Of a stretch of 64,000 nt of DNA, positions 7,205-64,000 are shown piece after piece. The stretch is from NCBI GenBank assembly GCA_041661765.1, contig JBAZTV010000003.1, forward strand, positions 143,914-207,913, written 5' to 3'. Both the position numbers and the translations under genes were made by a program. Each line of letters opens with the position of its first letter. Positions within the stretch are counted from its first letter, which is position 1. The stretch comes from Candidatus Shapirobacteria bacterium (GTDB taxonomy: Bacteria > Patescibacteriota > Microgenomatia > UBA12405). The notes beneath the pieces are model-generated. The model did no database searches, was not told the DNA's origin, and saw only the letters and a program-made list of their open reading frames with translations.

Positions 7205-8415
7205 AAAAAAATATTTCCAATCTCGTTTTAAATTATCTTAAATTTTTTGCCCGACTTCAACTTTCCAAAGTTAGATTTATCCAAAAATTAAAAAGAAAAC
7301 AGTTGGATATTGTCGGCATCACTGGCTCTGCTGGTAAAAGTTCTACTCTTTTTGCCTGTCAAACTATTCTTTCTTCTCACTTCAAAGTGAAAACAAACGA
7401 TGGCTATAATTCTGAATCTGGATTACCTTTAAGTATTATTGGTCTTAAAATCACTGATTATAATCTTCTTTCCTGGTTAAAAATAATTATTCTTTGCCCA
7501 ATTAAATTATTAATTAATTGGCAATCTTACGATATCTTAATTCTGGAAATGGGTGTTGACTCCCCCACTTGGCCCAAAAACATGGATTATCTTTTATCTA
7601 TAGTTCAACCCAACATCGCAATTTTTCTTAATGTCAGTTCTGTCCATATGATGAATTTCAAAAATCTTGATCAAATTGCCCAAGAAAAAGCAAAATTGGT
7701 CAATTCCGCCAAAACAGCCATCATTAATAACCAAGACAAATTAGTCAAAAAATACACTCAAAATAAAAATATTATTAATCTTGTTCCCACTAAAATTAAA
7801 TTTGACCAATTTTATCTTCCCGATATTTATCAAATCAGTTTTGGTGCCGCCCTCAGCCTAACCAGAATTTTTAACATCAACTACAACCAAGCTGTCAAAA
7901 ATCTTCAAACAAATTTTGTTCTGCCCCCATCCCGTTCTTCAATTTTAGACGGCATTAAAAATACAACTATTATCGACAGTTCTTACAATTCCTCCCCTAT
8001 TGCTTGTATTGAACTTTTAAAATTTTTAACCACTTTCAAAACCAAAAAAATTGCTGTTCTTGGCGATATGAGAGAACTCGGTAATTCTAGTAAGGAAGAA
8101 CATCAAAAAATTTACGATTTAGCCACTAAATCGGCTGATTTAATTATCAGTGTCGGACCAGAAACAAAAAAATATTTTATTAGTAGAGACGTTGCGCGCA
8201 ACGTCTCTACATTTAATTTTGATAATTGGTGGACAGCTGCCGAATTTTTAAAAGAACAAATTAAAGGTGATGAAACCATTTTAGTCAAAGGCTCTCAAAA
8301 CACCATTTTTCTTGAAGAATTAGTCAAATCAATTTTAAAAAATCCATCCGATTCTAAAAAACTCTGCCGCCAATCTCCCTATTGGCTAAAAGTCAAAGCC
8401 AAATTTAAGCTCTAA
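7201..8415 (+). CDS. murF: UDP-N-acetylmuramoyl-tripeptide--D-alanyl-D-alanine ligase (Mur ligase family, MurF-like)
   Basis: DIVGITGSAGKSST is the Mur ligase P-loop. DSSYNSSP and LGDMRELG are C-terminal-domain motifs. The start overlaps the alr stop. Confidence 0.8.
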   Translation: MKKNISNLVLNYLKFFARLQLSKVRFIQKLKRKQLDIVGITGSAGKSSTLFACQTILSSHFKVKTNDGYNSESGLPLSIIGLKITDYNLLSWLKIIILCPIKLLINWQSYDILILEMGVDSPTWPKNMDYLLSIVQPNIAIFLNVSSVHMMNFKNLDQIAQEKAKLVNSAKTAIINNQDKLVKKYTQNKNIINLVPTKIKFDQFYLPDIYQISFGAALSLTRIFNINYNQAVKNLQTNFVLPPSRSSILDGIKNTTIIDSSYNSSPIACIELLKFLTTFKTKKIAVLGDMRELGNSSKEEHQKIYDLATKSADLIISVGPETKKYFISRDVARNVSTFNFDNWWTAAEFLKEQIKGDETILVKGSQNTIFLEELVKSILKNPSDSKKLCRQSPYWLKVKAKFKL

Positions 8416-9001
8416 ATTCCTTATCCTTTTTCATCTCATGCTCAATCAAGTTTCTCAAAAACACCGACCTTGGTTGCATTCTTTTTTGAGCCACCCAATC
8501 TAAATAATTCAATATTTTTGGATTAACAAAAAAATTAAATCTCACATCAATCAAACTATCTGCCTTTTTTAAAGCTCCTTCTATTATTTGTTCTACATTT
8601 TCACCATCATATTCCGACATTATCAATTTTGGATCATCAATACCCTTAATAAATACCGGCATATGCTCCTTTTTATACAATGCAATTACTGGTTTATTCA
8701 TTTCCAAAGCTTTACTTATTAGATATCCCATCGACATACTATGTCCCGAAACTTCCATTATCACAATATCTGCCTTTTTAACTGAATCAAGCGATTGAAT
8801 ATAATTTTCCCTTTTTATTTTTTGCGGTACTCCGCGCATATCCTTCACCCCTGTTTTTATCCACTTCATCACCTTGTCACTAAGCATCTTTCCTTCAGCC
8901 GACAAACAAGCATACATTTTTGAATACAATTTTGGATCAATATCCACCAATCTAGCAGATGCTACAAAATATAATTTCATAAATTTATCCAAGTATATCA
9001 A
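8405..9001 (-). CDS. Hypothetical protein. Possibly nucleoside 2-deoxyribosyltransferase-like fold with a C-terminal extension.
   Basis: KLYFVASAR...ADIVIMEVSG...GYLISKALEMNKPVIAL weakly resembles NDT-like Rossmann proteins. Not diagnostic. Confidence 0.35.
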   Translation of the reverse strand: MIYLDKFMKLYFVASARLVDIDPKLYSKMYACLSAEGKMLSDKVMKWIKTGVKDMRGVPQKIKRENYIQSLDSVKKADIVIMEVSGHSMSMGYLISKALEMNKPVIALYKKEHMPVFIKGIDDPKLIMSEYDGENVEQIIEGALKKADSLIDVRFNFFVNPKILNYLDWVAQKRMQPRSVFLRNLIEHEMKKDKEFRA

Positions 9002-10097
9002 ATTTTTCTTTAAAAAATCTTACATCTTGTTCCATTGTTTTATCCCAATCTTGTTTAAAATTATGATCATTTTTCTCTTTAATATCCAAAATCACATTCT
9101 TTCCTAATTCTTTTAATTTAATTTGCAGTTCCTGTTGCCATTCAACTTTACACCACACATCCGCTGTTCCCTGATGAATCAAAATCGGCGCTCCAACCCA
9201 ATTATAAAAATTATCAATTGAATAAAGTTTACTGTCATATTCTTTTTCAAATTCATCAATCCTATTTTTTACAATTTTCCCCGATTCACTATTTTCATCC
9301 ATTGTATCCAAAACACTGTTCGGAAATGGATTGGTCATCGGCGCCCACAACACCGTCGGATAATTTTGTCCAGTAATTTCCAAAATTGAAATTGCAATCT
9401 GCCCACCATTACTATGTGCCCAAATTCCAATTTTAGTCGGATCCACAAAATCTAATTTTTTAACTGACTCAATTAAATCCAAAACACTCACCGGTTTTTC
9501 AAATCTTGCTTCTAAAATATCCTTCGACTCTCCATCAGATAAACCAAATCCCAAAAAATCCAAACTGACTGTTACAAAACCATTTCTGGCCAATTCATCC
9601 GCCGCCCGCCAACTTCCCGAACCAATATAATATCCATCACTATCAGCAAAACCTCTAATCATAATAATCACTGACGGTTTTTTACACGGTTTGTCCAACT
9701 GGCAGACCTGCCTGCCGGCAGGCAGGTTCATCATTCCACTTATTTTTTTTCCATTACTTTCAAAACTAATTGCCCTGCTTTCAAAATCAAAAATTTTTCC
9801 TTTCAAGTCACCTCTCTTTACTAATTCTTTTCTTGCTTCAACTACTGTCAAAACCTGACCTATTGTTTTAATCTCTGATGCTTTATTTATCCTTGTTTTT
9901 AAATTTTCAAAATTATATTGTGCCAAATAACCAGTGTTTTTTGGTTTTTCTTCTTGTAGAGACGCCCCACGGGGCGTCTCTACAGCTTCCGTTTTTAATT
10001 TCTGTTTTGTAAAATCTACCAAAAACCATCCATCCGCCCAACCCCAAAAAACTAAAACTATTACCACCCAAAAAATAATAATTAAACTTTTTTTCAT
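8985..10097 (-). CDS. Membrane-anchored alpha/beta-hydrolase-fold serine hydrolase
   Basis: N-terminal TM IIIFWVVIVLVFWGW. Nucleophile elbow GIWAHSNGGQIA (G-x-S-x-G). Contains two in-frame palindromic elements (9705-9729 and 9956-9983). Confidence 0.6.
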   Translation of the reverse strand: MKKSLIIIFWVVIVLVFWGWADGWFLVDFTKQKLKTEAVETPRGASLQEEKPKNTGYLAQYNFENLKTRINKASEIKTIGQVLTVVEARKELVKRGDLKGKIFDFESRAISFESNGKKISGMMNLPAGRQVCQLDKPCKKPSVIIMIRGFADSDGYYIGSGSWRAADELARNGFVTVSLDFLGFGLSDGESKDILEARFEKPVSVLDLIESVKKLDFVDPTKIGIWAHSNGGQIAISILEITGQNYPTVLWAPMTNPFPNSVLDTMDENSESGKIVKNRIDEFEKEYDSKLYSIDNFYNWVGAPILIHQGTADVWCKVEWQQELQIKLKELGKNVILDIKEKNDHNFKQDWDKTMEQDVRFFKEKFDILG

Positions 10098-10309
10098 CTT
10101 ATTATTCTTATATTATAACCAACCAATATTTAAAATTGACAAACTCAAAAATCTGACTAAAATACCTCTTATCTAAATGTAACGAAACATTCGCGTTCCG
10201 TTTATGTACTTTTAAAACCAAAATCAGTAGAGCAAATGCTCAGCTTGGACATAAAAATTGTGTCTAAACCGAGCATTTGCTCAAATAAATATAAGAGGGG
10301 TTTTGACAA

Positions 10310-10645: not shown

Positions 10646-10808
10646 TTTTGATTCCCCACGCCCGAAACGTTTTTGAATTTTTATATTCAACAACACTTCG
10701 GGCTTTAATTTGCCCAAAAACTATCCTATAACTTGTTATTAGGCCTATAATTTGTTACAATTCCTCGTTCTTTAAAAAACCAAAAATTAATGAAAGAAAG
10801 AAGGTCTT

Positions 10809-11780: not shown

Positions 11781-11794
11781 TCAAATGGCTCCGG

Positions 11795-12489: not shown

Positions 12490-12655
12490 CGAAAGTTTTT
12501 GATAATTATTATCAATTATATTCGGAGCCATTTTTTATGATATAATACCCCATTAACCGAAGACAGTAGGCACACAAATAAGTCCCACCGAGGCAAAACA
12601 ATTTATTTGTTTTAATTGCGCCTCGATCTTCGAGGCTTTTTTTATTAAAAAATAC
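12490..12655 (+). promoter_or_regulatory. Probable L10 (rplJ) leader / autoregulatory 5'-UTR with a terminator-like hairpin
   Basis: Long untranslated region immediately upstream of rplJ. It has paired segments ggcttcgaaag ... gcctcgatcttcgaggcttttttt. rplJ-rplL operons are classically regulated by an L10(L12)4-binding leader. Confidence 0.4.
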
Positions 12656-13624: not shown

Positions 13625-13662
13625 AAACATTAAAATCCCTCTATTTTAGGGGGATTTTTTTT
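13625..13662 (+). terminator. Terminator-like hairpin after rplL
   Basis: aaatccctctattttagggggattttttttacc. Confidence 0.5.
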
Positions 13663-14127
13663 ACCATAATTCACCGGATTATCCTTAATATATTTTTTAT
13701 AAATCAAATATTCTTTTTCGTTTCGAATCCCTCTATCAAAAAATGATTTTTGCCATTCAAAACAAAATATTTTATTAATATTTTTTGAAATTGCTGATTT
13801 AAATGATCCAACAATAATTGGAATTATTTGATTTTGCCTTCTGTTTACTTGGGGACAGGCATGCCTGTCCCCTACAATAAATACAATTGCATGAATATGA
13901 TCTGGCATTATTACATAATCATCTAAAATAACATTTGGATAATGTTTTGGTATTTCATTCCATAATTCATTTGCCAAAATTCCAAAATCAGTCAAATAAA
14001 TTTGACCATTCTCAATGGTTCCAAAAAAATTTCTTCTATTTTTCATACAAATCGTTAAAAAATAAAAACCACCACTATCGTAATTAAAATTTAAACATCT
14101 ATTATTTTTTCTTTGACACGATCGCAT
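13630..14127 (-). mobile_element. IS200/IS605-family Y1 (HUH) tyrosine transposase, REP-associated type (RAYT-like), 165 aa. A palindromic repeat (13851-13872) is embedded in-frame.
   Basis: YFLTICMKNRRNFFG is the N-terminal beta-strand region. MPDHIHAIV is the HUH motif. The C-terminal catalytic-Tyr region is EKEYLIYKKYIKDNPV (YI..NP). Flanked upstream by two further copies of the same palindrome. Confidence 0.8.
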
Positions 14128-14150: not shown

Positions 14151-14316
14151 TTGTAGGGTACAGGCATGCCTGTACCCTGTTATTCACAATTATTATTAAT
14201 ATAATATGTAATATTAAATACATGATAATTAAATTGCAATAAAACATATAAAAAATCCCTCAATATTTTATACAAATGTGTGTAAAACAAAGTACAGGCA
14301 TGCCTGTCCCCTACAA
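14151..14316. repeat. Two inverted or nested copies of the 32-nt perfect palindrome TTGTAGGGGACAGGCATGCCTGTCCCCTACAA (family 2), separated by an AT-rich spacer, upstream of the RAYT gene
   Basis: ttgtagggtacaggcatgcctgtaccctgtt at 14151-14181. agtacaggcatgcctgtcccctacaac at 14290-14316. Further copies lie inside the RAYT ORF (13846-13877) and at 23721-23750. Confidence 0.8.
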
Positions 14317-23714: not shown

Positions 23715-23885
23715 TCGTGCCTGTAGGGGACAGGCATGCCTGTCCCCTCCCTTAATACAAAACCTCTCTGTCTCCCCGCGACCGCGGGGAGACATCTCCC
23801 CTTAACAAGGGGAGAAGTCAAATTAAAATTAAAGATTTCCGCCCTCTTTGAGGGAGGATGTCCGCAGGACAGGAGGGATTTGAGT
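23715..23885. repeat. Cluster of at least four different hairpin elements (family 2 palindrome, gggga-gacatctccccttaacaaggggag, and others) between ruvC and murB
   Basis: ctgtaggggacaggcatgcctgtcccctcc. ctccccgcgaccgcggggagacatctccccttaacaaggggagaagtc. gccctctttgagggaggatgtccgcaggacaggaggg. Confidence 0.75.
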
Positions 23886-30670: not shown

Positions 30671-30743
30671 CAGGGATTAGCGCAATTGGTAGCGTGCAGC
30701 GTTCGGGACGCTGAGGTTGCAGGTTCGACTCCTGTATCCCTGA
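30671..30743 (+). tRNA. tRNA-Pro (anticodon CGG), no encoded CCA
   Basis: Manual fold: acceptor CAGGGAT/ATCCCTG. D-arm GCGC-AATTGGTA-GCGT. Anticodon arm CAGCG-TTCGGGA-CGCTG (anticodon CGG). T-arm GCAGG-TTCGACT-CCTGT. Discriminator A. The C1-G72 start is typical of bacterial tRNA-Pro. Confidence 0.8.
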
Positions 30744-30817: not shown

Positions 30818-30889
30818 GTCCTCATAGTTCAATGGATAGAACGACCACCTCCTAAGTGGTAAATCCAAGTTCGATTCTTGGTGGGGATA
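30818..30889 (+). tRNA. tRNA-Arg (anticodon CCT), no encoded CCA
   Basis: Manual fold: acceptor GTCCTCA/TGGGGAT with two G-U pairs. D-arm GTTC-AATGGATA-GAAC. Anticodon arm ACCAC-CTCCTAA-GTGGT (anticodon CCT). T-arm CCAAG-TTCGATT-CTTGG. Discriminator A. Confidence 0.7.
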
Positions 30890-32662: not shown

Positions 32663-35131
32663 TTAATCTTTTATAACAAAATTAATCATTTTACCCTCAA
32701 TATATATCTCTTTAACTATCACTTTACCATTAATCCATTTTTTAATCTTCTCCTGTCCTTTTGCTCTTTCAACAATTTCGTCTTTATCATTCTGCTTTGC
32801 AAAATTAATTTCTAGCTGATCTCTAACTTTACCATTAATAGCTATCGCCACTATTATTTTATCTTCAATTAAATATTGAGAGTCAGCCTTGGGCCACTCA
32901 GCAATATGAACTGATGCGTATTCGTGTAGATACGCACGATCGTGCGTCTCTACCATAAAATATAATTCTTCGGCCGTATACGGCGCAAATGGCGCCAATA
33001 ACTTAATTAAAGTTTTTATATCTTCATCTACCATCGACAATCTAAGATCTGTCAATTTATTTAGCGCTTCCATCATCTGAGCAATAGCAGTATTGTACTT
33101 GAATTGCTCATTCATATCGGTAATGTTTTTAATTGTTTTATTTAATATCACTTTAACTTCTCTATTTTTAGCAGTCTCACTACCAACTTGATTAATTTGT
33201 AGTTTGATAAACTGCTCAAATCTATCCAAAAATCTTTTTACCCCCATTAAAGTGTTTTCATTCCAAGCCATAGTCGAATCAAATGGACCCATAAACATCA
33301 TATACATTCTCACCACATCAACCCCGTATTTATCAGCTACTACTTCCGGCACAATTACATTACCTTTAGATTTACTCATTCTTTGATTATCTGGACCCAA
33401 AATAACTCCATGTGACAATCTTTTATAATAAGGCTCTGGCTGTTCTTTTGGTACTACTCCCAAATCCCATAAAAATTTATAAATAAACCGTGAATACAAT
33501 AAGTGTAGAACGTTATGTTCATCTCCTCCAACATAAACATCAACCGGACACCAATACTTCATCAATTCTTGACTAGCTAGAACTGTATCATTATCTGGAT
33601 CAATATATCTCAAAAAGTACCAATCACTACCTGCCCAATTCGGCATGGTGTCTGTTTCCCTTTCTGCCTTTCCACCACACTTTGGACATTTAGTTTTTAC
33701 AAAACTTTCAATTTTTGACAACGGACTTTTACCATCATCGGTCGGCTCATATACTTCCACTTCTGGCAGCACAATTGGCAGATCACTTTCAGCAACCGGC
33801 ACCCAACCGCATTTTGGACAATTGATCATTGGAATTGGTTCGCCCCAATAATGCTGTCTTGAAAATATCCAATCTCTTAAATGATACGACGCCGTCCTTT
33901 CCCCAATGCCTTTTTCTGATAACCACTTAATCACTTTTTTAATTGCCTCTTCTTTGTTTAAACCATTTAAAAAATCTGAATTTATTACTTTATTACTTTT
34001 TTCGTCATAGACTTTAATCATTTCTAAACCAAATTTCTTAGCAAATTCTTCATCTCTTTCATCGTGGGCTGGCACTGACATAATTGCTCCAGTTCCATAA
34101 CTAGCCAAAACAAAATCCGAAATCCAAATTGGGATTTCTTTATTATTAACCGGATTAATCGCATATAATCCTGAGAACACTCCCGTTTTATCTTTGGAAA
34201 GTTCCGTTCTTTCTAGGTCAGATTTTTTCTTCGATTGTTTAATATATGTCTCGATATTTTTTTGTAGAGACGCATCATGATGCGTCTCTAACAATTGCGA
34301 AACAAGTTGATGTTCTGGTGCTATCACCATAAATGTGGCTCCAAAAAGTGTATCTGGTCTGGTTGTAAACACCTCAAGATAATCTGTAGAGACGTAGCGC
34401 GCTACGTCTCTACTACTTGACGAACTTTTAACTTTAAACTTTATTTTTGCCCCTTCTGATTTTCCAATCCAATTAATCTGCGCCTGTTTTACTTTTTCAA
34501 TAAAATTAGTTTCTTCTAATCCTTCAATTAATTTATCAGCATACTCTGTTATTTTCACCACCCATTGAGAAATATTCCTTCGACTCACCTCTGATCCACA
34601 TCTCTCACATTTCCCATCCACCACTTCCTCATTTGCCAAACCAATTTTGCAAGATGGACACCAATTAATCGGCATCTCTTTCTTATATGCCAACCCCTTA
34701 TTAAATAGTTGAATAAAAATCCACTGAGTCCATTTATAATAGTGTGGATCAGTAGTGTTGACTTCCCGACTCCAATCAAATGAAAAAGCTAAATCCTTCA
34801 TTTGTTTTCTGAACATATCAGTATTTTCTTTAGTTACATCCTGCGGTTTTCTTTTCATCTTAATTGCATAATTTTCTGTTGGTAATCCAAACGCATCCCA
34901 ACCCATCGGAAATAAAACATTCTCTCCCTGCATTCTTTTAAACCGAGCATAAACATCACCTCCAGTAAAGCTAAAAGCATGTCCCACATGAAGCCCACTA
35001 CCACTTGGATATGGAAATTCAACAAGAATATATTTTTTATTTTTTTTTGAATTATTATCTGCTTGATAAAGTCCAGGATGTTCTTCCCAAAATTTCCTCC
35101 ATTTATTTTCTATTTCCTTGAAATTTTCCAT
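32663..35131 (-). CDS. leuS: Leucyl-tRNA synthetase
   Basis: PYPSGSGLHVGHAFSFTGGDVYARFKRMQGENVLFPMGWDAFGLP contains the HIGH region. KMSKSKGN is present. 822 aa. Carries three in-frame family-1 palindromes (32926-32953, 34264-34291, 34386-34413). Confidence 0.95.
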   Translation of the reverse strand: MENFKEIENKWRKFWEEHPGLYQADNNSKKNKKYILVEFPYPSGSGLHVGHAFSFTGGDVYARFKRMQGENVLFPMGWDAFGLPTENYAIKMKRKPQDVTKENTDMFRKQMKDLAFSFDWSREVNTTDPHYYKWTQWIFIQLFNKGLAYKKEMPINWCPSCKIGLANEEVVDGKCERCGSEVSRRNISQWVVKITEYADKLIEGLEETNFIEKVKQAQINWIGKSEGAKIKFKVKSSSSSRDVARYVSTDYLEVFTTRPDTLFGATFMVIAPEHQLVSQLLETHHDASLQKNIETYIKQSKKKSDLERTELSKDKTGVFSGLYAINPVNNKEIPIWISDFVLASYGTGAIMSVPAHDERDEEFAKKFGLEMIKVYDEKSNKVINSDFLNGLNKEEAIKKVIKWLSEKGIGERTASYHLRDWIFSRQHYWGEPIPMINCPKCGWVPVAESDLPIVLPEVEVYEPTDDGKSPLSKIESFVKTKCPKCGGKAERETDTMPNWAGSDWYFLRYIDPDNDTVLASQELMKYWCPVDVYVGGDEHNVLHLLYSRFIYKFLWDLGVVPKEQPEPYYKRLSHGVILGPDNQRMSKSKGNVIVPEVVADKYGVDVVRMYMMFMGPFDSTMAWNENTLMGVKRFLDRFEQFIKLQINQVGSETAKNREVKVILNKTIKNITDMNEQFKYNTAIAQMMEALNKLTDLRLSMVDEDIKTLIKLLAPFAPYTAEELYFMVETHDRAYLHEYASVHIAEWPKADSQYLIEDKIIVAIAINGKVRDQLEINFAKQNDKDEIVERAKGQEKIKKWINGKVIVKEIYIEGKMINFVIKD

Positions 35132-44006: not shown

Positions 44007-44138
44007 AACTTAAAATTAAAACCCACCCGCCCTGCGGGCACCCTCCCTTAAAAAAGGAGGGTTTTTGTTTATCCGTAGAGACGTTCTGCAGAACGTCTCT
44101 ACATAAAAAACATTATCCTGGGCACCCCGCATTGCGGG

Positions 44139-45725: not shown

Positions 45726-45939
45726 ATCCCTTTTTATTTTAAAACCCTCCGTGACCAAAACCCCTCTGTTCCCCGCGTCAGCGGGGAACAACAATTCTTT
45801 TTTATTCAAAACCTCTCAGTCTCGCTTCGCTCGCCAGCTCCCCTTAACAAAGGGAGCAGCCTAAAAAATAAAGACTTTCTCCCTTGATAAGGGAGAATCC
45901 CGGTTTATCCGGAAGAGGGATTTGTTGTATACTTAATTA

Positions 45940-46353: not shown

Positions 46354-46654
46354 ACAAAACCCCCTCCAGCTACTGCGGGAAGGGATTTTTTAGTCTCACC
46401 AAATCGTTTTTTACACGAATCGAATTTGCCAAACAACTAAACATAACAATTAACAACACCATTGTCAATTAGATATTGTTATTTAATTCACAAAAACCAT
46501 CGTGGATCTAGGGAGAATTGAACCCCCGAGACCAAATTTGGCAAATTCGATTCCCAACCTGGTAGGCCCACGACAACTTATATTAACACAATATTGTAAT
46601 TATTATTACAGAATATATTTAATTAAATAAAAATTATTTTGTTTTGGGCGATTC

Positions 46655-46814
46655 ATGAATCGCCCCTACATGTTATCCTTTTTATATATAATGCCTCGTA
46701 AAAAACCCTTTCAAAATCCCTCTAAATCTCCCTTTGACTTAAAGGGAGACTTTAAAAACAAAATTTTATTATCCCCTCCTTTAAGTCAAAGGAGGGGTAG
46801 GGGTGGATTTTGAC
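46655..46814 (+). promoter_or_regulatory. Conserved ~155-bp upstream cassette of the giant-protein genes. Contains a putative -10 (tatatataat) and two hairpins. Copies at 56474-56632 (near-identical) and 51820-51925 (partial).
   Basis: ...catgttatcctttttatatataatgcctcgtaaaaaaccctttcaaaatccctctaaatctccctttgacttaaagggagactttaaaaacaaaattttattatcccctcctttaagtcaaaggaggggtaggggtggattttgacATG. Confidence 0.6.
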
Positions 46815-54900: not shown

Positions 54901-55908
54901 AGTACTTTATGTTTTTTAATCAATATTAATGGTACCTATTATTCCGCTACTTACGCCAGTAGTAATTTATCTAATAACACTTGGTATCATATTGCCGGAT
55001 CTTATGATGGTACAACAGTTAAATTATTTCTAAATGGTTCCAATATTGGCACCACTGCCACAATTAGTAATACTATTACTCAAGCCGCTTACAATTTATG
55101 CATTGGTAGTGAAACCGATGCTGGATCTTGCACTTCTGGATTTTTTAATGGCAAAATTGATCATGTCAAAATCTACGACTATGCCCGCACCCCCGCCCAA
55201 ATCGCCTACGACTACAATAAAGGTGCCCCAGTTGGATGGTGGAAACTCGACGATTGCCAGGGTTTGACCGCGTTTGACTCATCTGGATTAGGAAATAATG
55301 GTGCCATTTCCATCGGCCCCAGTGGAACTCAAAACTCTGCCGGCACTTGTCAAATCGGCACTTCCGCCGCCTGGACCAATGGCGCCACTGGAAAAATTAA
55401 TTCTAGTTTAAATTTTGATGGCAATGATGATTATATTTCAACTTCATATATATCAGGTATTCAATCATTTATTACCATTAGTGCATGGATCAAACCAAAC
55501 GCATTAACCAGTACATACGAAATTTCAAATCAAGGCCAATGGGACGGAGGACCTTGGACAGGTTGGCGATTCAGACAAATAAATAATTATATTAACTTTA
55601 AACTTGGCGATAACACTTCTAATGCATATGAAGCATCAGGTGGAACACTTATACAAAATAGTTGGCAACATGTAGTTGGAATTTGGGATGGCAGCTATAT
55701 TCGTTTATATATAAATGGTAAAGAAGTAGTTAAAACTGCTAAATCATTCACTTATGTTGGAAATACTGGTTCTCATTCAATAGGTAAATATGGCGGATCT
55801 GCATATTTTTTTAAAGGCCAAATTGACGATCTTCGCATCTACAACTACGCTCTCACTCCAGAACAAGTCAAAACTGTTTTTAATAATGGAGCGGTGAATT
55901 TTCAATAA
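51979..55908 (+). CDS. Giant surface protein 2 (1309 aa). Same architecture, with a unique ~230-aa insert carrying a fibrinogen-related-like motif. The N-terminus is degenerate: no ATG, first possible start GTG.
   Basis: Shares TM plus DUF2341-like N-terminus and the C-terminal ...IDDLRIYNYALTPEQVKTVFNNGAVNF. Insert: GLSCKSILDAGNSTGNNTYWIDPTNGNISDKFQAYCDMTNDSGGWMLVTQ. Upstream ATG 51963 is out of frame and followed by a stop. Confidence 0.8.
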   Translation: MSKLSYKTLLIILFFLLIGVIVLWKFVLPNHKVEASWWNDGWNYRVAVNIGNTGSSLTNFQIPISVGTSALINSSKMQSDCDDIRVVDQNGNLLTYWVSGCGTTSTQIWPKIPSIPNGGATVYVYYGNPSATSVKSTVGTSDYPGLSCKSILDAGNSTGNNTYWIDPTNGNISDKFQAYCDMTNDSGGWMLVTQSMISSEVGTSVTTTKTTNINGGVDISNSITHSGCGASIYHRVLFTDIIPWTKIKADYEFLGGNSCWSIFGNTSYTGGSTNLIAFSSGTDTIHNQVKMGGSNGDNYDGINSRCDNETFNFWHSNQGVGTTRSAQVILRRNSMSSLAGLGTGAACSTAGYPWKYKNIYVREDVMTFAATAGTPATEEVGGGPIAYWKFDEGTGTTAYDSTTNQNNGIFSTGSSAPTWQIEDQCISGKCLSFNNVMGNKISSNFRYDNNQYFTISAFIKPTSTSSFKIIAGTAIGNNINSGLTLNVNNLCFHDYSTFSGDREICSSNNPIQLNTWQHIALIYSNGSLELFVNGKSVKTGSFTITSSGNTTLIGGSSAFDYSGGRFFSGFIDDIKIYPYARTADQIKLDYNSRGSSNGSSVNLGVQSSTAPDLNSKLIGYYKFDEGNGNNINNTKSTSYDGTKYNTTNWDNNGKYNKALWFDGTTAQLIINNTSGWRNNGNDMSLSIWIKPDSSDDGGYIFSKPWNGSGGYNYGLTSSGGANPSFSFTLTGASSFSLGSNKTVSSNQWHQIIITVNNTTKLVKFYIDGKITNSNTHTITDWTPSGGDVSVNFVLGCIYPYASNSCAGATTYDFKGYMDEFKYYNTVLTDEEVKQDYNQGSAISFGSTNQTIGGTTTSLEYCIPGDTSTCLAPVAEWKMDEKTGITVKDTSGNNNNGTITGATWTTGQIGAGLKFSGSGQAVSVVDNSTLKPTAAITTEAWFNTIDKTVTSQRILSKTEGSGYQLSINENSACPSSTLCFLININGTYYSATYASSNLSNNTWYHIAGSYDGTTVKLFLNGSNIGTTATISNTITQAAYNLCIGSETDAGSCTSGFFNGKIDHVKIYDYARTPAQIAYDYNKGAPVGWWKLDDCQGLTAFDSSGLGNNGAISIGPSGTQNSAGTCQIGTSAAWTNGATGKINSSLNFDGNDDYISTSYISGIQSFITISAWIKPNALTSTYEISNQGQWDGGPWTGWRFRQINNYINFKLGDNTSNAYEASGGTLIQNSWQHVVGIWDGSYIRLYINGKEVVKTAKSFTYVGNTGSHSIGKYGGSAYFFKGQIDDLRIYNYALTPEQVKTVFNNGAVNFQ

Positions 55909-56395: not shown

Positions 56396-56632
56396 AAATA
56401 ATTATTAGGATTTAAAGCCTCCCTGTCAAGGGAGGTGGCGAGTGAAACGAGACGGAGGGTTTTGAATTAAAAATGAATCCCCTCCCCATGTTATCCTTTT
56501 TATATATAATGCCTCGTAAAAAACCCTTTCAAAATCCCTCTAAGTCTCCCTTTGACTTAAAGGGAGACTTTAAAAACAAAATTTTATTATCCCCTCCTTT
56601 AAGTCAAAGGAGGGGTAGGGGTGGATTTTGAC

Positions 56633-59600
56633 ATGAAATCAAAAAAATTAGATATTAATAATTGGTCAGTAAAGAGTTTATTAATTATTTTATTTTTCTT
56701 ATTAATTAGTATTGTTATTCTTTGGAAATTTGTCTTACCAAATCATAAAGTAGAGGCTAGTTGGTGGAATGATGGTTGGAATTATAGGAAAGCGGTTAGT
56801 ATTAGTAATACTGGTGCTGCTCAAACCAACACCCAAATTAAAATCCTTAATAATTATGATCTAAGTGCTCTAGTTACTGCTGGAAAAATTCAAGCCGATT
56901 TAGACGATTTAAGATTTACTGACATCAATGGAAATTTACTAAATTATTGGATTGAAGATTCCACTAATAATAGTGTTGATATTTGGGGTGTTGTTTCTTC
57001 ACTTCCAACATCAGGTACTACTATTTATATGTATTATGGAAATCCTTCAGCAACCAGTGTCAGTAGCACTTCAAATATAACCATCGGTGGCACAATGACA
57101 TCTATCGGTGGCTATCGTATTCACACATTTACTAGTAATGGAACCTTAACAAACGCCAATAATACCAATGCCGAAGTTTTAGTTGTCGCCGGTGGCGGCG
57201 GCGGCGGATCTTCATCTGGTGTTGGTGATGGTGGTAGTGGCGGCGGAGGCGCTGGAGGTCTAACCTATAATTCATCTTATGCCCTAACTCAAGGACAAAT
57301 TATTAATATCACTGTTGGTGTCGGTGGAACCAATGGTGCCACTTCTTCACATCAATCAGGGACAGATGGTGGCAATTCTATTTTTGGAGCTATTACTACA
57401 AACGGTGGTGGAGGCGGTGGAACCACTGGTGTAAATGGTCGACCTGGGGGTTCCGGTGGTGGCGGTGGTTACAATGGTTATACTACCATTCGCTATGGTG
57501 GAAGTGGTGTTGTTGGAATTGGAAATTCAGGTGGAGCTACTACTGATTTAGCTTCAGCATCAGGAGCTGGTGGAGGTGGAGCCGGAGGAGTTGGTGGAAA
57601 TAATATAACAGGTCATGTTGGAGGAAATGGTGGTTTAGGAATTAATTATTCTATAACTGGAATCGGGGTAACCTATGCCAGTGGTGGTCGTGGCGGCGGC
57701 GGCGCCGCCCCTGTTAACAAAACAGCCAATACTGGTAATGGCGGTGATGGAGCTTATTCTACCAGTATACCCACCAGTGGTGCTTCCGGCATTGTTGTCG
57801 TCAGATTTTTATCTGGAACCGCCAGCACCCCTTCCACCGAAGAAGCCGGCGGTGGCCCAATTGCTTATTGGAAATTCGACGAAGGCACCGGCACTTCTGC
57901 TTATAATTCAACTACAAGCAACCATAATGGTGCTCTTCAAAACGGAACTTCTTGGGCCTCTGAAGATCAATGTGTTTCAGGAAAATGTTTAAAATTTGAT
58001 GGAGTAAATGATTATGTTAGTGCTGGGGTTGGAACCGATTATCTCCCCATGAATACTTTTTCTATATGTGCTTGGGCAAAATCTCCAGGCCTTGCCTCTG
58101 GTATGAGTTTAAATGGAATAATAAGTTACACCTATGGTTTAACAATGTCCATTGACGGATCTGGACATTTTCTTAGTAGAGTAGATGATGGATCAAATAT
58201 AGTTGGTGTAACTGAATCATCTCAAAATCTTTATGATAATAAATTTCATCATCTATGTTTTACATTTGATGGTACTAATCGTTATATGTATATTGACGGT
58301 AAATTAAAAGTAACAACCGCAACTACATGGAACAATAGATATTCAAGTAATTCAGTAAATATCGGACACGAAAACAATAATTCACCTATTTATAAATTTA
58401 ATGGTTTCATTGATGAACCAAAAATTTATCCCTACGCCCGCACCGCCGCTCAAATCAAACTCGACTACAATTCCCGCGGTTCTTCCAAAGGCACTTCCGC
58501 CAATCTCGGATCCGCCGCTAGTGATAATAATTTATCTGATGGATTAGTCGGTTATTGGAAAATGGACGAAAATACAGGCATAAGTATTACTGATAGTTCA
58601 GGATTAGGTTACACCGGAATTTTTGGAACTGGAGATTCTGCTCCTTCTTGGTCAAGTGGAAAATTCGGGGTTGGCACCAGTTTTGACGGTAGTAATGATT
58701 ATATTGACGCCGGAAATGTTTTAAATATGGGCACTAATGATATGACCATATCAACGTGGATAAAAACCACCAATTCTAGTTCCACTGCTCAATATATAGT
58801 AAGTAAATCTTTAGCCGCTGCTCAAAATTATCGCTATGGTATTTTTACTAGAAATGGTACTGCTGGAATTTTTATGCAAGGTGACGGTGGAGCTGATGTT
58901 GTGGTTTATGGTACTAAAAATATAGCCGATGGAAATTGGCATAATATTACATATATTTTTAACAGAGATGATAAAGCCGATATTTATGTTGATGGAATTT
59001 ACGATGTGGGGCAAACAATATCTCAATGGAACGGAAAAAATATGGTTTCTATTAATCCTTTTAGGATCGGTGCCTACACTGCAGCTGACAACACAGGTAT
59101 TACTTCCTCATTTAGTGGTTTTATAGATGAAACTCGAGTTTACAACCGCGCCCTTTCCCCCACTGAAGTTTCTCAACTTTACGAATTCGCCCCCGGACCA
59201 ATTTTTTATTGGGATTTTAACGAAGGAATCGGTACCACTGCTTTTGACAAACAAAACCACACAAATTTACCTATTTCAAATGCCACCTATACATCGGGTA
59301 AATATGGCGGTGGATTAAATTTCAATGGAAATGCTTGGTTAGAAAAATCAATTTCTCCATCAATTGCCGCCGCTCAAGATTATACCCAATGTCTTTGGTT
59401 TAACACTTCAACCAATGCCACTAGACAAATATTAATTGATGATTCTAATCAATGGGAACATTGGATCGCTATTAACACCAATAAAACAATTTCTGGTTGT
59501 TATTATAATGCTTCTCAAATGTGTGCCACTTCTACTAACATCATTAATTTAAACACCTGGAATTATGTTTGTTTAGCCGTTCAATCTGGACAAAAAATGA

Positions 59601-61783
59601 GCTTATTTTTAAATGGATCACTTTGGGCTGAAAACACTAATATTGGCAGCACTTTACCTAAAATTTATGATGATGTTTGTATTGGTAAAGCTGGAGGAGG
59701 TTCCAATGAAAAATTTACTGGAAAAATTGACGATGTCAAAATCTACAATTACGCCCGCACCCAAAAACAAATCACTGAAGATATGAATGCTAACCACCCT
59801 GCCGTTTCTTCTAATTCTATGATTGGTTATTGGAAATTTGACGAAGGCAGTGGCACCACCGCCAACAATTCCGGCAACGGCGGTTCTGCTTTAAACGGAA
59901 CATTAACTGGTACAACCATCCCAACCTGGACCAACGACAGTAAATCTGGTAAAGCCATCAATTTAAATGGCATCAATAGTTTTGCTCGAACTGGCATTAT
60001 CCCTGCCTCCGATGCTTTTTCTCTTTCTGTTTGGTTCAAAGCCAATCAAGTTAGAGATCAAAATCGAATTTATTGGGGCACTGGTACAGACAAAGCAATA
60101 CTAGCTTTTTCCGGTACATCAGGATATTTAACTTGGTATATGTCTGCCTCTGGTGGTAATACAGGTTATAAAACTACATCAAAAAAAATTAATATTAATG
60201 ACTGGAATCACGTTGTTTTAGTTTACAACGGCAGTATTGTTAAATGTTTTATTAATGGAGTCGAAGATAATATCATAGGTACTTTAACTGGTACTAGTGT
60301 TGCTTCTGCTATTAATTTAGGTACTAATTATAATAATACTGGAAATTGGTTTGACGGAAAAATAGATGAGGTTAAAGCTTATAACTACGCTCTCACCTCC
60401 GACGAAATCAAACTCGACTACAATCAAGGTTCTGCCCTACAAATGGGACAAACTTCTCAAACCATCAGTGGCACCACCACTTCTCTAGAATATTGCATTC
60501 CTGGCGATACTTCGGCCTGCGCCTCCCCTGTTGCCGAATGGAACTTCGAAGAAAACACCGGCACCACCACCAAAGATTCTAGTGGCAATAATAACACCGG
60601 CACTTTTGGCACCGGATCTTCCGCCCCCACCTGGACAATTGGCAAAAAAAATACCGGCGCCGGATTAAGATTTGATGGAGTTAATGATTATTTAACATTC
60701 CCTAATTATTTTAATTTAAGTCCCGCCACCCTAGAATTTTGGTTTAAAGCCAATAGTTGGTCCAACTCCCCATTAATTATCGGTAAAGATAGTGCTGGCG
60801 CCACTAACGGATATGTTCAATATGTTAGTAGTCAATTAAGATTTTATGCACCTGGAAACACAGTAACTGTTAATTGGGGTAATCCATCATTAAACACCTG
60901 GCACCATGCCACTTTAGTTATCACCGGAACTCAACATTTAGCTTATTTAGATGGTGCATTAGTTGGCTCTCCAGTTTCTTCCGCACTGGCTTTATTCACT
61001 GGCAACTATAATTTTAAAGTTGGCTGTTACGATAATGGCGCTTTAGCATTCAATGGTTCCATTGATCAAATGAAGATTTACAATTACGCCCGCACCCCCG
61101 CCCAAGTCGCCTACGACTATAACAAAGGGGGTCCAATTGGTTGGTGGAAGCTTGACGAATGCCAAGGTTCCGTGGCTAACGACTCATCCGGAATAGGTAA
61201 TACTGGATCAATTAATATCAGTGCTAGCGGCACCCAAACCTCTGTCGGTACTTGCACCACTTCTGGCACTGCCTGGGGCAACGGTGCTAGCGGTAAAATC
61301 AACTCTTCGCTAAACTTCGATGGAACAGATGATGAAATTAGTATAGGATCATTTGGTATTCTAAATAATTACACTATATCATTTTGGGCAAAACATAATG
61401 TTTCAAGTAAGATGCCTATTGGTTCTAGGTCTGGCACTACTTATTATTGGTATGGAGACAGTAGTTGGAAATATACTCATGGAGGAACTTCCGGTGAATT
61501 TTATTATCCAAAGTCAGTAAATATTCCCAATGGGACCTGGGGACATTTCACTGTTACTTATGATGGAATTAATGTCCGCATTTACAGAAACGGAAAGTTT
61601 GAAGGTTCTCAAGGTTCTACTGGTACAGCAGATTTTTCTAATGGATTTTATTTAGGATGGGGATATCCAGATAGTAGTTATCATTTTAATGGTCAAATAG
61701 ATGACGTTCGCATCTACAACTACGCCTTAACTCCGGAACAAGTCAAGACACTTTACAATGGTGGAGCGGTCAGCTTTAATTAA
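56633..61783 (+). CDS. Giant surface protein 3 (about 1716 aa from ATG 56633; the ORF opens at GTG 56621). TM, DUF2341-like domain, a ~250-aa glycine-rich segment, then about 7 LamG/ConA-like modules.
   Basis: N-terminal 45 aa nearly identical to protein 1. Gly-rich region ...YRIHTFTSNGTLTNANNTNAEVLVVAGGGGGGSSSGVGDGGSGGGGAGGL...GGGGGGTTGVNGRPGGSGGGGGYNG...ASGIVVVRF. C-terminal IDDVRIYNYALTPEQVKTLYNGGAVSFN is identical in style to proteins 1 and 2. Confidence 0.85.
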   Translation: MKSKKLDINNWSVKSLLIILFFLLISIVILWKFVLPNHKVEASWWNDGWNYRKAVSISNTGAAQTNTQIKILNNYDLSALVTAGKIQADLDDLRFTDINGNLLNYWIEDSTNNSVDIWGVVSSLPTSGTTIYMYYGNPSATSVSSTSNITIGGTMTSIGGYRIHTFTSNGTLTNANNTNAEVLVVAGGGGGGSSSGVGDGGSGGGGAGGLTYNSSYALTQGQIINITVGVGGTNGATSSHQSGTDGGNSIFGAITTNGGGGGGTTGVNGRPGGSGGGGGYNGYTTIRYGGSGVVGIGNSGGATTDLASASGAGGGGAGGVGGNNITGHVGGNGGLGINYSITGIGVTYASGGRGGGGAAPVNKTANTGNGGDGAYSTSIPTSGASGIVVVRFLSGTASTPSTEEAGGGPIAYWKFDEGTGTSAYNSTTSNHNGALQNGTSWASEDQCVSGKCLKFDGVNDYVSAGVGTDYLPMNTFSICAWAKSPGLASGMSLNGIISYTYGLTMSIDGSGHFLSRVDDGSNIVGVTESSQNLYDNKFHHLCFTFDGTNRYMYIDGKLKVTTATTWNNRYSSNSVNIGHENNNSPIYKFNGFIDEPKIYPYARTAAQIKLDYNSRGSSKGTSANLGSAASDNNLSDGLVGYWKMDENTGISITDSSGLGYTGIFGTGDSAPSWSSGKFGVGTSFDGSNDYIDAGNVLNMGTNDMTISTWIKTTNSSSTAQYIVSKSLAAAQNYRYGIFTRNGTAGIFMQGDGGADVVVYGTKNIADGNWHNITYIFNRDDKADIYVDGIYDVGQTISQWNGKNMVSINPFRIGAYTAADNTGITSSFSGFIDETRVYNRALSPTEVSQLYEFAPGPIFYWDFNEGIGTTAFDKQNHTNLPISNATYTSGKYGGGLNFNGNAWLEKSISPSIAAAQDYTQCLWFNTSTNATRQILIDDSNQWEHWIAINTNKTISGCYYNASQMCATSTNIINLNTWNYVCLAVQSGQKMSLFLNGSLWAENTNIGSTLPKIYDDVCIGKAGGGSNEKFTGKIDDVKIYNYARTQKQITEDMNANHPAVSSNSMIGYWKFDEGSGTTANNSGNGGSALNGTLTGTTIPTWTNDSKSGKAINLNGINSFARTGIIPASDAFSLSVWFKANQVRDQNRIYWGTGTDKAILAFSGTSGYLTWYMSASGGNTGYKTTSKKININDWNHVVLVYNGSIVKCFINGVEDNIIGTLTGTSVASAINLGTNYNNTGNWFDGKIDEVKAYNYALTSDEIKLDYNQGSALQMGQTSQTISGTTTSLEYCIPGDTSACASPVAEWNFEENTGTTTKDSSGNNNTGTFGTGSSAPTWTIGKKNTGAGLRFDGVNDYLTFPNYFNLSPATLEFWFKANSWSNSPLIIGKDSAGATNGYVQYVSSQLRFYAPGNTVTVNWGNPSLNTWHHATLVITGTQHLAYLDGALVGSPVSSALALFTGNYNFKVGCYDNGALAFNGSIDQMKIYNYARTPAQVAYDYNKGGPIGWWKLDECQGSVANDSSGIGNTGSINISASGTQTSVGTCTTSGTAWGNGASGKINSSLNFDGTDDEISIGSFGILNNYTISFWAKHNVSSKMPIGSRSGTTYYWYGDSSWKYTHGGTSGEFYYPKSVNIPNGTWGHFTVTYDGINVRIYRNGKFEGSQGSTGTADFSNGFYLGWGYPDSSYHFNGQIDDVRIYNYALTPEQVKTLYNGGAVSFN

Positions 61784-61795
61784 AATTTCTAGTCT

Positions 61796-61869
61796 GTAGA
61801 GACGTAGCGCGCTACGTCTCTACAAAAATAATATTCTCCCAGTAGAGACGCCACGCATGGCGTCTCTAC
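61796..61869. repeat. Two tandem family-1 REP-like palindromes (GTAGAGACG-N8-CGTCTCTAC) immediately after giant gene 3
   Basis: gtagagacgtagcgcgctacgtctctac at 61796-61823 and gtagagacgccacgcatggcgtctctac at 61842-61869. Identical or near-identical copies at 8184-8210, 9956-9983, 32926-32953, 34264-34291, 34386-34413, 44075-44102, 62594-62621 and 63520-63547. Confidence 0.9.
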
Positions 61870-62073
61870 CAAAAACCACTTTCTTTATTATTTAAAACCC
61901 TCCGTCTCTTCGAGCCACCTCCCTTGACAGGGAGGCTTCAGCTCACCAAATAAAGGTCCCCTGTCAAGGGGAAGGTGGTACGAAGTACCAAGGGGTTTTG
62001 TATTCTTTTTATGATAAATATTACAATTATTTGATGTATTTTATTAATATTATTCTCATTTATACTTTAAATT

Positions 62074-62343: not shown

Positions 62344-63033
62344 ATTTAAAACGCCCCCCCCATAATATTCATTTGTTCCATCCCTCACAAAATTTTCTCT
62401 ACGATATATCCCCTACGACCTAAATCCTAATTTTAACCATTCCTTAAACACCAAACCATTCTTTTATACCGATTAGCAAACAGACCAAAATTCTGCCACC
62501 AAAAATCCCTCTAGTACATCAAAAATAAACAAAACTAAAACTAACCCATCAAAAATTTAATTTTAAAAAGTATCTTATAAAAAGAAATAATCTGTAGAGA
62601 CGCCATGCATGGCGTCTCTACAATATTTAAATATGTCTCTACTAATTTAAATATGTCTCAGCAAAAATTATTTTCACACTTTACAAACACATCCTATAAT
62701 TATTTTTAGTTATATACATCACATCTCTTTATCTACAATCTATCACCTACGACCTAAGATTCATTTATACCCTTCTCTTAAACACAAAAACGCCCTCCAC
62801 TCCCCTTTAGCACCACCGTGTCCAATCTGCCAACAAAAATAAAATAAATACATCATAAACAAACATTTAAAAACATTGTGACTCAAAAATTAAATTGAAA
62901 AAAATAGCTTATATTTTAAAATCCCTCTCTAGTTTCAATCTTCCCCCTGACCCCCTTCTTTGACAAGACGGGGGAAATAATTGTCTTTTTTAAAGTCCCT
63001 CTTGTCAAAGAGGGATTTAGGGAGATTGAATCC

Positions 63034-63486
63034 CTATCTAAAAGTTACCGTCACCGTTCCATTCAACGAAACCCCACCCACACTAGCAGTTAATTCATAC
63101 TGTTGAGCTGTTGTCGATGTTAACTCAAAAGTTGCCTTACCCAAGCTATCCGTTGCCGCATCTAATTCTAAACCATTCTGCTTTGCAGAACCTAGCCCGC
63201 TCAATTGAACTGATTTACCAGCAATACCCTTTCCATCACTATCTAAAACAAAAACATTCACCACACACTTCTCCTGACCATCTGCCTTAGCCACCATTTT
63301 TTGACCAATTAACAAAGAGTTTTTAATCGAAACTTTTTGAACCGTACTCGCTTTAGTCAAAGTCACCAACGCCTTAGGAATCACAGACGTCCCCAAATAA
63401 ATCACTGCCGCTATAGCCACTAAAAAACCGATACCACTGTATAATATGTTCTTTTTATCAGCAATCATCTTAGTAAATAATAGCAC
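63034..63486 (-). CDS. Small membrane-anchored Big-like Ig-domain protein. Paralog of 45940-46353, in inverted orientation.
   Basis: N-terminal TM. AKADGQEKCVVNVFVLDSDGKGIAGKSVQLS...DSLGKATFELTSTTAQQYELTASVGG parallels the 45940 protein. Confidence 0.45.
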   Translation of the reverse strand: MLLFTKMIADKKNILYSGIGFLVAIAAVIYLGTSVIPKALVTLTKASTVQKVSIKNSLLIGQKMVAKADGQEKCVVNVFVLDSDGKGIAGKSVQLSGLGSAKQNGLELDAATDSLGKATFELTSTTAQQYELTASVGGVSLNGTVTVTFR

Positions 63487-64000
63487 AAAAAAATAATTGT
63501 TTAAAACCCACTTGACTCTGTAGAGACGTAGCGCGCTACGTCTCTACTTAATAAACCCGATGTCTCTATTAATCAAACCTGATTCCCTTCCTTTTAGCAC
63601 CAACTACCAACCACTGCTAATCTCTAATAAATTTAAAAACACACCTAAAAACAGGCATATTTAACCTAATTTTTAAACTTAAAAATCAAAAAATAATCCC
63701 AAAACTAATTTTTTCTCCCAAAAAGGATACAAATTATCACCCTCTAGCTACTTATATATCAATATAATTCATTATATCTTAAACAAAATTTATTAAAAAT
63801 TAACATTAATTTAATTTTTAATTTAAAAAAAATTTATTTTTTTACCAAAAAATTCACTTCCTAATTACCTTTTTTAAATCATCTTTGTACCCCTAAAGTA
63901 TATCATTTAATATCTTTTAGAGTAAACCGCATTTCTCCGCATTAACAAATTTTTACCGGCTCGTATTAGGTTATATTTTGATTTTATTTATACCACATTG

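Follow-up and report, generated by a model that had tools for sequence, protein, structure and literature searches.

What kind of element is a 28-nt palindrome that occurs ten times in 64 kb of a Candidatus Shapirobacteria genome, and how could half of its copies have come to lie inside genes such as leuS? We addressed this question in a single 64-kb window (the whole stretch of DNA that was analysed) from this member of the candidate phyla radiation (CPR, or Patescibacteria), in which an initial annotation had noticed the palindrome, here called family 1. Our analysis indicates that the ten copies are probably non-autonomous 'double-foot' repetitive extragenic palindromes (REPs), with a 5' foot of GTAG and a 3' foot of CTAC, belonging to a system of REPs and REP-associated tyrosine transposases (RAYTs, or TnpAREP). 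Family 1 fits TnpAREP subclass 2.4 of Quentin et al. 2018 (PMC6006769). Since intragenic REPs and double-foot REPs have both been published already, it represents a known class and not a novel kind. The novelty lies in the CPR host, the genic fraction of 50%, the recurrent hot spots in LeuS with swapping of cores, and the mismatch between the clade of the resident RAYT and the commonest REP. The initial annotation overlooked both the published double-foot class and a RAYT homologue at 13630-14127.

Family 1 is a 28-nt palindrome with fixed feet and a variable core

The window was scanned for GTAGAGACG-N10-CGTCTCTAC with at most 3 mismatches, and 100 dinucleotide-preserving shuffles served as the control. 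Ten matches of 28 nt each were obtained, compared with a mean of 0.00 and a maximum of 0 in the shuffles (n=100). These are exactly the ten sites listed initially; the spacer had been given as N8, a pattern that yields 0 matches when taken literally, and the first copy, placed at 8184, really starts at 8183. The copies at 34386, 61796 and 63520 are identical to the base, as had been reported, and the arms are perfect in 7/10 copies. A GTAG start, a CTAC end and a 12-bp stem are shared by 8/10 copies, the exceptions being copy 34264, which terminates in CTAA, and copy 32926, whose stem is broken by an internal mismatch. While the outer 9 bp (GTAGAGACG) are fixed, the inner decamer is variable yet self-complementary: there are 8 different decamers among the 10 copies, and 48/50 inner pairs are Watson-Crick. 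Folded as single-stranded DNA, the eight distinct copies (seven perfect, one with an internal mismatch) form hairpins of 11-12 bp with a 4-nt loop and energies of -8.2 to -13.5 kcal/mol; folding as good as this was seen in 0/200 shuffles.

Five copies are genic and five intergenic. The dyad reads alike on both strands, and two of its three frames are stop-free, while the third contains TAG. Specifically, the frame GTA-GAG-ACG gives VET..SL and the frame xGT-AGA-GAC gives xRD..VST. The observation that genic copies keep the frame open in either orientation is thus true but trivial, the palindrome being identical on both strands. All five in-frame peptides were confirmed as first read. Pfam likewise upheld the gene calls, namely a Mur ligase with M and C domains (7201-8415(+)), an alpha/beta hydrolase or S9 peptidase (8985-10097(-)) and LeuS (32663-35131(-)), although the essentiality that had been ascribed to the host genes is not shown for the hydrolase.

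That several lineages have the same peptide at matching LeuS positions could suggest that a peptide module (SRDV..VST or VET..SL) is what has been selected and that the palindrome is incidental. We regard this as very improbable: the same DNA is read in two frames to give unrelated peptides, the element is also found between genes and in unrelated proteins, the inner residues follow the palindromic DNA and no amino-acid property, and most orthologues, together with the Thermus thermophilus leucyl-tRNA synthetase (LeuRS), lack the peptide. The use of two frames and the intergenic copies effectively refute it. The arms also contain the type IIS hexamer CGTCTC/GAGACG, as had been pointed out and as can be read directly from the sequence. 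That the copies are restriction-modification-related sites, for which the hexamer is the sole argument, is extremely improbable, given that the conserved unit comprises 9 nt plus a structured core and is no mere hexamer. Excision by a type IIS enzyme was rejected as well, since by our own derivation from the BsmBI cut positions re-ligation needs flanks AC...GT, and such flanks were not seen.

The intergenic copies raise the alternative that the hairpins are kept as terminators, mRNA stabilisers or protein-binding sites, with their spread being secondary. Two of them, 61842 and 62594, are terminator-like on the - strand, copy 61796 lies 13 nt past a stop codon, and REPs elsewhere affect termination and mRNA stability (PMC3733652). 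Such a role appears quite improbable as an explanation of the family, because five copies reside in essential-type ORFs (open reading frames), where termination would be harmful, the T-run after the hairpin is missing in most copies (a T-rich tail being weak evidence in an AT-rich genome), no copy has an Rfam match, and occupancy of the sites is patchy among close relatives. Using Rfam 15 at the gathering threshold, no family overlapped any palindrome, the only matches in the window being two tRNAs and an L10 leader. Intrinsic terminators in particular were considered and rejected: only 2/5 intergenic copies are T-tailed, on the - strand without a nearby upstream - strand gene end, and genic copies cannot terminate.

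Genic copies behave as insertions in indel-tolerant loops

The closest LeuS sequences are from Candidatus Shapirobacteria (82-85% identity), and LeuS length across the clade ranges from 788 to >1000 residues. In an alignment of 27 sequences all three LeuS peptides fall in indel-variable loops, where many orthologues are gapped and others carry a like peptide with different inner residues. Modelling of LeuS, which had been proposed with the initial annotation, was informative at one site only. An AlphaFold model built from the 27-sequence alignment had a mean pLDDT (predicted local distance difference test score) of 51.8, with the editing domain <50; residues 731-735 at site 3 form a low-confidence loop between confident helices, and sites 1 and 2 could not be placed. 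Since the model was too poor for those two sites, we employed an alignment to T. thermophilus LeuRS (1h3n), which has gaps opposite the window peptides of 11 residues at site 1, 4 at site 2 and 9 at site 3. Site 1 directly precedes the conserved VFTTRPDT of the editing domain.

Comparison with relatives extended this pattern to other genes. The Mur ligase orthologue in the syntenic relative L128 (89% amino-acid identity) is without the element, and the window protein has 7 additional codons. The hydrolase orthologue in L128 is occupied at the same site, by a copy with the core TCCCGCGGGG (VETSRGASL), and in a related Shapirobacteria genome (L127, GCA_028689945.1) a copy at 4863-4890 lies inside dnaX, with the core CATCATGATG as at LeuS site 2 of the window. 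Wherever the DNA of relatives was read, as it was for six LeuS orthologues, the family-1 peptide came with the nucleotide palindrome, so that the observation named initially as a refutation, the peptide without the palindrome, was not made. These alignments show the genic copies as insertions in indel-tolerant loops, present or absent among close orthologues; each of the five is placed opposite a gap in orthologues or in T. thermophilus LeuRS. The initial description of a REP-like, apparently mobile palindrome tolerated in coding sequence has therefore held up, as many orthologues lack the peptides and are gapped where these align; nor is the motif peculiar to the window, since related Shapirobacteria contigs contain it, as do at least 120 loci of other phyla.

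Covariation across phyla points to a true dyad

An exact-foot scan of a species-representative genome collection (596 Gb) recovered 128 family-1 copies in at least 120 loci, compared with a chance expectation of ~9 by our own estimate for 18 fixed bases in 596 Gb. Among the loci listed are members of Bacteroidota, Cyanobacteria, Chloroflexota, Acidobacteriota, Planctomycetota, Spirochaetota, Zixibacteria and other phyla. Long open stretches hold 31/128 copies, as against 78% of random positions, so that elsewhere the element is mostly intergenic. Across these 128 copies each inner pair is represented by 3-4 pair types and is Watson-Crick in 84-97%, and the inner decamer is perfectly palindromic in 88/128. 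Moreover, complementarity extends into the four central bases, which in a hairpin would make up the loop (positions 13-16 in 116/128 copies, positions 14-15 in 107/128). The dyad centre is purine/pyrimidine in 100/107 symmetric cases (AT 64, GC 36, TA 7, CG 0), and there is a flank preference for T before the element (70/128) and A after it (66/128). Family 1 is a true dyad rather than a simple stem-loop, because complementarity includes the central loop bases, whose symmetry would not be predicted from hairpin selection alone.

Family 1 is associated with a RAYT clade of other phyla

When ORFs within 2.5 kb of the motif were clustered, the most recurrent group was an IS200-like Y1/RAYT with the HuH motif MPNHLH. 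These genes lie 0-4 nt from the motif in 6 Bacteroidota loci, a seventh (L001) being a fragment, and family-1 palindromes occur on both sides of them and in frame within them. RAYTs are flanked by family 1 in L013, L035, L054, L071, L140 and L143, of which L140 and L143, having family 1 inside the gene as well as beside it, are complete REPtrons. A homologue search with the L140 RAYT found 2410 proteins, and the best 120 were examined. The family-1 peptide, in either frame, is present at about residues 91-97 in 79/119 of these RAYTs, and the named members are Ignavibacteria, Melioribacteraceae and Bacteroidota. Because 79/119 RAYTs of this clade carry its peptide, family 1 is the signature REP of a RAYT clade of the Fibrobacteres-Chlorobi-Bacteroidetes (FCB) group ('WWYY' type, Ignavibacteria/Bacteroidota).

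Downstream of a Paludibacteraceae RAYT, at 5214-5585 of L071, seven degenerate family-1-like palindromes are spaced by ~52-62 nt, a cluster resembling bacterial interspersed mosaic elements (BIMEs).

A RAYT homologue in the window is accompanied by a REP family of its own

The ORF at 13630-14127(-) is matched in tblastn by the Bacteroidota RAYT of L013 with E=1.6e-23, its best match in the PDB is E. coli TnpArep (4er8, 5.5e-5), and an 87%-identical homologue has been named RayT by JGI. Residues H77, H79, W125, Q126 and Y146 are invariant in a RAYT alignment (A4). Because of the E-values and the 87%-identical protein named RayT, homology of this predicted protein to RAYTs is clear despite profile scores below the cut-offs.

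No family-1 copy flanks this gene; its flanks are occupied by family 2, a second GTAG palindrome (GTAGGGGACAGGCATGCCTGTCCCC) of the form GTAGGG(G/T)ACAGGCATGCCTGT..., which has GGG/CCC at the stem bottom and is of the canonical long type. The copies at 14153-14179 and 14292-14314 constitute an inverted REP pair beside the RAYT, in a REPtron-like arrangement. The family-2 insertion embedded in the window RAYT is also found in the RAYT homologues P0121-P0125, P0129, P0133, L130, L135 and L136. Among metagenome relatives of the window RAYT, each RAYT clade embeds its own REP after the HuH motif, and the window clade (L130, L135, L136) embeds GTAGGG(G/A)ACAGGCATGCCTGT(C/T)CCCTAC. The enzyme that serves family 1 here may lie elsewhere in the genome as a second RAYT, or the window RAYT may act across families; alternatively, the family-1 copies may be orphans.

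The RAYT locus, from the dCMP deaminase gene to rplL, is syntenic between the window (13630-14127) and L128 (10001-10531), with flanking genes at 85-90% DNA identity. Within the RAYT itself the N-terminal two thirds are ~41% identical at the protein level and the last ~35 codons are ~92% identical as DNA, and the REP embedded in the L128 RAYT occupies the same codon position but is of another type. It looks as though the RAYT and its REP type had been replaced allelically at a fixed locus. An IS200/IS605 insertion sequence was rejected, as there is a single RAYT-type gene without an adjoining tnpB-like ORF, in a syntenic position in L128.

Cores turn over at fixed positions in LeuS

The junctions of LeuS site 1 are identical in the window and in L121, but the cores, TAGCGCGCTA and CCATGCATGG, differ at 5/5 half-site positions and are both perfect palindromes. 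The site-1 core is TTGCGTGCAA in L132, and in L131, whose LeuS is only 68% identical, it is the same as in the window. Family-1 peptides were found at the same three sites in 16/120 LeuS homologues, with at least 7 different cores at site 1, and the occupied sequences are scattered over a neighbour-joining tree, mostly as singletons. The cores are drawn from a pool common to several genomes and even to several phyla. Point mutation cannot account for such a pattern, which requires elements to have been gained, lost or replaced repeatedly at fixed positions.

As a more speculative proposal, which we consider possible but rather unlikely, the two feet would act as paired cleavage sites in this CPR lineage, and the core would be swapped as a cassette, with 'landing pads' that stay in frame at fixed places of essential proteins. 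Exchange of this kind would explain the identical LeuS junctions with unrelated cores from a shared pool, the scattered occupancy on the LeuS tree and the presence of other palindrome families at the same hot spots.

Peptides seemingly from other repeat families were observed at the hot spots of LeuS orthologues, namely NPLSAGADISLEKG, SCAKASEG/FAKATEG, ARNEVTKQSQRDCHGLQPRN and SPLSKGDLEG. Tandem serine codons (tcaagt units) are present at the 5' junction of site 1 (~34414-34435, - strand), where they encode SSSSS, and at 10700-10727 of L121, where they encode SSSSSS.

A proposed mechanism and its alternatives

By analogy with the TnpAREP proteins of E. coli, Stenotrophomonas and Marinomonas (PMC8266576, PMC3479197), an element that becomes single-stranded, for example at replication forks, would fold to a hairpin. 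The HuH/Tyr nuclease would recognise foot and stem, cut at an adjacent dinucleotide and rejoin strands, so that elements are copied or exchanged. A double foot would provide a cleavage site at each end and on both strands, allowing copying and, speculatively, exchange of the core; both strands would offer the same substrate because the element is a perfect dyad. Genic copies would survive only if they bring a stop-free frame (2/3), change the length by a multiple of three and fall in a permissive surface loop, and repeated survival at permissive sites would produce recurrent hot spots such as the three in LeuS.

Several observations weigh against assigning family 1 to a REP/RAYT system. Direct transposition of any REP has never been shown, model systems included (PMC8266576), and half of the window copies are genic, which is at odds with the definition of REPs as mainly extragenic. 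Neither a clean filled/empty pair nor a target-site footprint was found in LeuS, Mur ligase or hydrolase against relatives at 82-86% nucleotide identity, because the loops are too diverged for a footprint to be read; the target-site duplications for which the initial annotation had advised looking thus gave no result. Net length differences to relatives are 18, 21, 24 and 42 nt, and never 28. As for the enzyme, the best model for the window RAYT, NCBIfam NF047646 (REP_Tyr_transpos), is matched with E=4e-15 and 56 bits, below the cut-off of 80, and Pfam PF01797 (Y1_Tnp) with 19 bits, below the cut-off of 23. The window RAYT is only 41-44% identical to the family-1 RAYT clade and has a different REP, the 64-kb window contains no second RAYT and none of the family-1 clade, and no CPR-labelled member was present among the best 120 of the 2410 homologues of that clade.

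Some of these points would be accommodated if the copies were relics of a past REP/RAYT invasion, or had been spread by host replication and repair (template switching or gene conversion), with no dedicated transposase now. The window is without a RAYT of the cognate clade and shows no clean transposition footprint, genomes with REPs but without tnpAREP have been reported (PMC6006769), and symmetry of the central bases is what arm-on-arm templating would be expected to produce. We nevertheless judge this explanation unlikely. Three identical copies and 7/10 perfect palindromes indicate recent copying, there are lineage-specific insertions absent from relatives at 82-89% identity, the same cores are common to several genomes and phyla, and elsewhere the exact element is strongly associated with one RAYT clade. 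On balance, we favour double-foot REPs of a REP/RAYT system as the more probable reading.

Other features of the window

The coordinates of the palindromes and the RAYT homologue are collected in Table 1. Isolated family-1 half-sites (GTCTCTAC) are present at 35186-35193, 44812-44819 and 62635-62642, one of which overlaps the start codon region of ORF 35184-36182. Outside full copies there are 7 half-sites with at most 1 mismatch, compared with 3.5 by chance, which is no clear enrichment. The ORF at 63034-63486, which is flanked by family-1 copies, was considered as a transposase and rejected, as it encodes a Big_1-domain membrane protein. Palindrome families without a GTAG foot (e.g. CCCTTGACAGGGAGG and CCCTCTTGTCAAAGAGGGA) are found at 61917-61990, 62940-63020, 5597-5620, 23769-23794 and 45767-45790. 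The Rfam matches are a ribosomal protein L10 leader upstream of rplJ (12539-12651) and two tRNA genes (30671-30743 and 30818-30889).

GC skew is -0.17 to -0.43 over the first 47 kb and near zero at 48-60 kb, where GC content rises from ~0.32 to 0.37-0.40. For a complete Microgenomates genome, a disparity in strand composition has been reported (PMC7143001). The block of higher GC contains three consecutive giant ORFs, at 46803-51809 (1668 aa), 51979-55908 (1309 aa) and 56621-61783 (1720 aa), the last of which contains many repeated modules ending in ...IDDVKIYNYA(L/R)T..Q(I/V)..(D/L)YN.

Table 1. Palindromes and the RAYT homologue in the 64-kb window (a point in the strand column: no strand assigned)
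Feature	Position	Strand	Core or sequence	Context
Family 1	8183..8210	.	TTGCGCGCAA	In Mur ligase ORF 7201-8415(+), in-frame SRDVARNVST
Family 1	9956..9983	.	CCCCACGGGG	In alpha/beta hydrolase ORF 8985-10097(-), in-frame VETPRGASL
RAYT / TnpAREP homologue, 165 aa	13630..14127	-		HuH motif MPDHIHAIV; WQ; catalytic-Tyr motif YKKYIKDNP
Family 2, canonical long REP	13851..13875	-	GTAG-GGGACAGGCATGCCTGTCCCC	In frame in RAYT, between HuH and Tyr motifs, VGDRHACPQ
Family 2	14153..14179	+	GTAGGGTACAGGCATGCCTGTACCCTG	26 nt upstream of RAYT start codon
Family 2	14292..14314	-	GTAGGGGACAGGCATGCCTGTAC on - strand	Opposite orientation; sequence read directly
Family 2	23723..23750	.	GTAGGGGACAGGCATGCCTGTCCCCTCC	Dispersed, intergenic
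Family 1, one arm mismatch	32926..32953	.	CACGATCGTG	LeuS site 3, aa 727-735, VETHDRAYL
Family 1, one end mismatch	34264..34291	.	CATCATGATG	LeuS site 2, aa ~281-289, LETHHDASL
Family 1	34386..34413	.	TAGCGCGCTA	LeuS site 1, aa ~240-249, SRDVARYVST
Family 1	44075..44102	.	TTCTGCAGAA	Intergenic, between ORFs 43008-44006(+) and 44139-45116(+)
Third GTAG-type palindrome	46643..46668	-	TAGGGGCGATTCATGAATCGCCC on - strand	REP type embedded in L128 RAYT
Family 1	61796..61823	.	TAGCGCGCTA	13 nt past stop codon of giant ORF 56621-61783(+)
Family 1, imperfect core	61842..61869	.	CCACGCATGG	18 nt beyond copy 61796; terminator-like score, - strand
Family 1	62594..62621	.	CCATGCATGG	Intergenic; terminator-like score, - strand
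Family 1	63520..63547	.	TAGCGCGCTA	34 nt upstream of start of ORF 63034-63486(-)

Comparison with known systems

TnpAREP subclass 2.4, which is RAYT group 4 of Bertels et al., has two REP types, the 'canonical long' type with three G-C pairs at the stem bottom and the 'double foot' type with 5' GT[AG]G and 3' C[TC]AC; its REPs also occur in frame within tnpAREP between HuH and Y, and its hosts belong to Cyanobacteria, Bacteroidetes and scattered phyla (PMC6006769). Family 1 resembles it in the foot and its complement, the long perfect stem, the REPs that flank the RAYT (family 1 elsewhere, family 2 in this window) and lie in frame within it, the canonical long REPs alongside, and the distribution over Bacteroidetes, Cyanobacteria and scattered phyla. 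It differs from the subclass as published in the CPR host, in having half of its copies in housekeeping genes and in the window RAYT being of another clade, and the text of that paper does not contain the sequence GTAGAGACG-N10-CGTCTCTAC.

The E. coli REPs, their BIMEs and TnpAREP (4er8; PMC3479197, PMC8266576) share with the present system a HuH/Tyr nuclease for single-stranded DNA, a GTAG hairpin foot, dispersed high-copy palindromes (for family 1, ten copies in one 64-kb window) and the REPtron. However, E. coli REPs are imperfect and bulged, with a single unpaired GTAG, strand-specific recognition and an almost wholly extragenic distribution, whereas in family 1 GTAG is paired with CTAC and the strands are equivalent. 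REPINs are non-autonomous, built of REPs and replicated by a single-copy, vertically inherited RAYT (PMC3116915). While a REPIN consists of two inverted REPs and a spacer, the double-foot element looks like such a dimer collapsed to one perfect dyad, an origin that has been suggested for double-foot REPs (PMC6006769).

Short REPs in frame in genes, including those for tRNA synthetases and for DNA replication and repair, were described by Di Nocera et al. 2013, who also noted orthologous recB genes with different REPs at nearly the same place (PMC3733652). Their survey covered Proteobacteria, Opitutus, Rickettsia and others and included no CPR genomes, and neither the family-1 sequence nor its peptides appear in the text or supplements. 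A full-text literature search with the arm sequences returned only primer and cloning matches, and a search of the available literature found no paper linking RAYT or REPIN with CPR or Patescibacteria. The initial suggestion that the phenomenon is undescribed in CPR may stand to that extent, but the in-frame double-foot architecture itself has been published (PMC6006769).

Rickettsia palindromic elements (RPEs) had been put forward as the analogue. Like family 1, they are inserted in frame in functional genes at permissive sites and add surface peptides without inactivation. RPE-1 type elements are ~100-150 bp long, and to our knowledge RPEs are confined to Rickettsia and have no associated transposase; family 1, in contrast, is 28 nt long, GTAG-footed, RAYT-associated and present in many phyla. 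The REP/RAYT system is thus the closer parallel.

Implications for CPR genomes and REP biology

Genomes of CPR bacteria are ~1 Mb in size and densely coded, leaving scant intergenic space for selfish DNA. A REP/RAYT system living in the loops of LeuS, Mur ligase, DnaX and the transposase gene itself would represent a survival route for mobile hairpins in a streamlined genome, and REPs become a concrete candidate source of the lineage-specific insertions in CPR housekeeping proteins. The combination of a fixed foot with a free core at identical junctions offers a natural experiment on RAYT recognition, in which cores may have been copied, exchanged or converted, a question that applies to the REPs of E. 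coli as well. For annotation, the recurrent xRD....VST and VET....SL in proteins or 'hypothetical' ORFs of Bacteroidota, Ignavibacteria, Cyanobacteria and CPR are to be expected, and are REP read-through and not protein motifs. If the exchange of cores as cassettes is true and general, REP-type elements would rank among the main sources of the large length variation in CPR housekeeping proteins, as in LeuS with 788 to >1000 aa, and the RAYT serving such elements would itself be subject to replacement, along with its REP type, at one fixed position in the chromosome.

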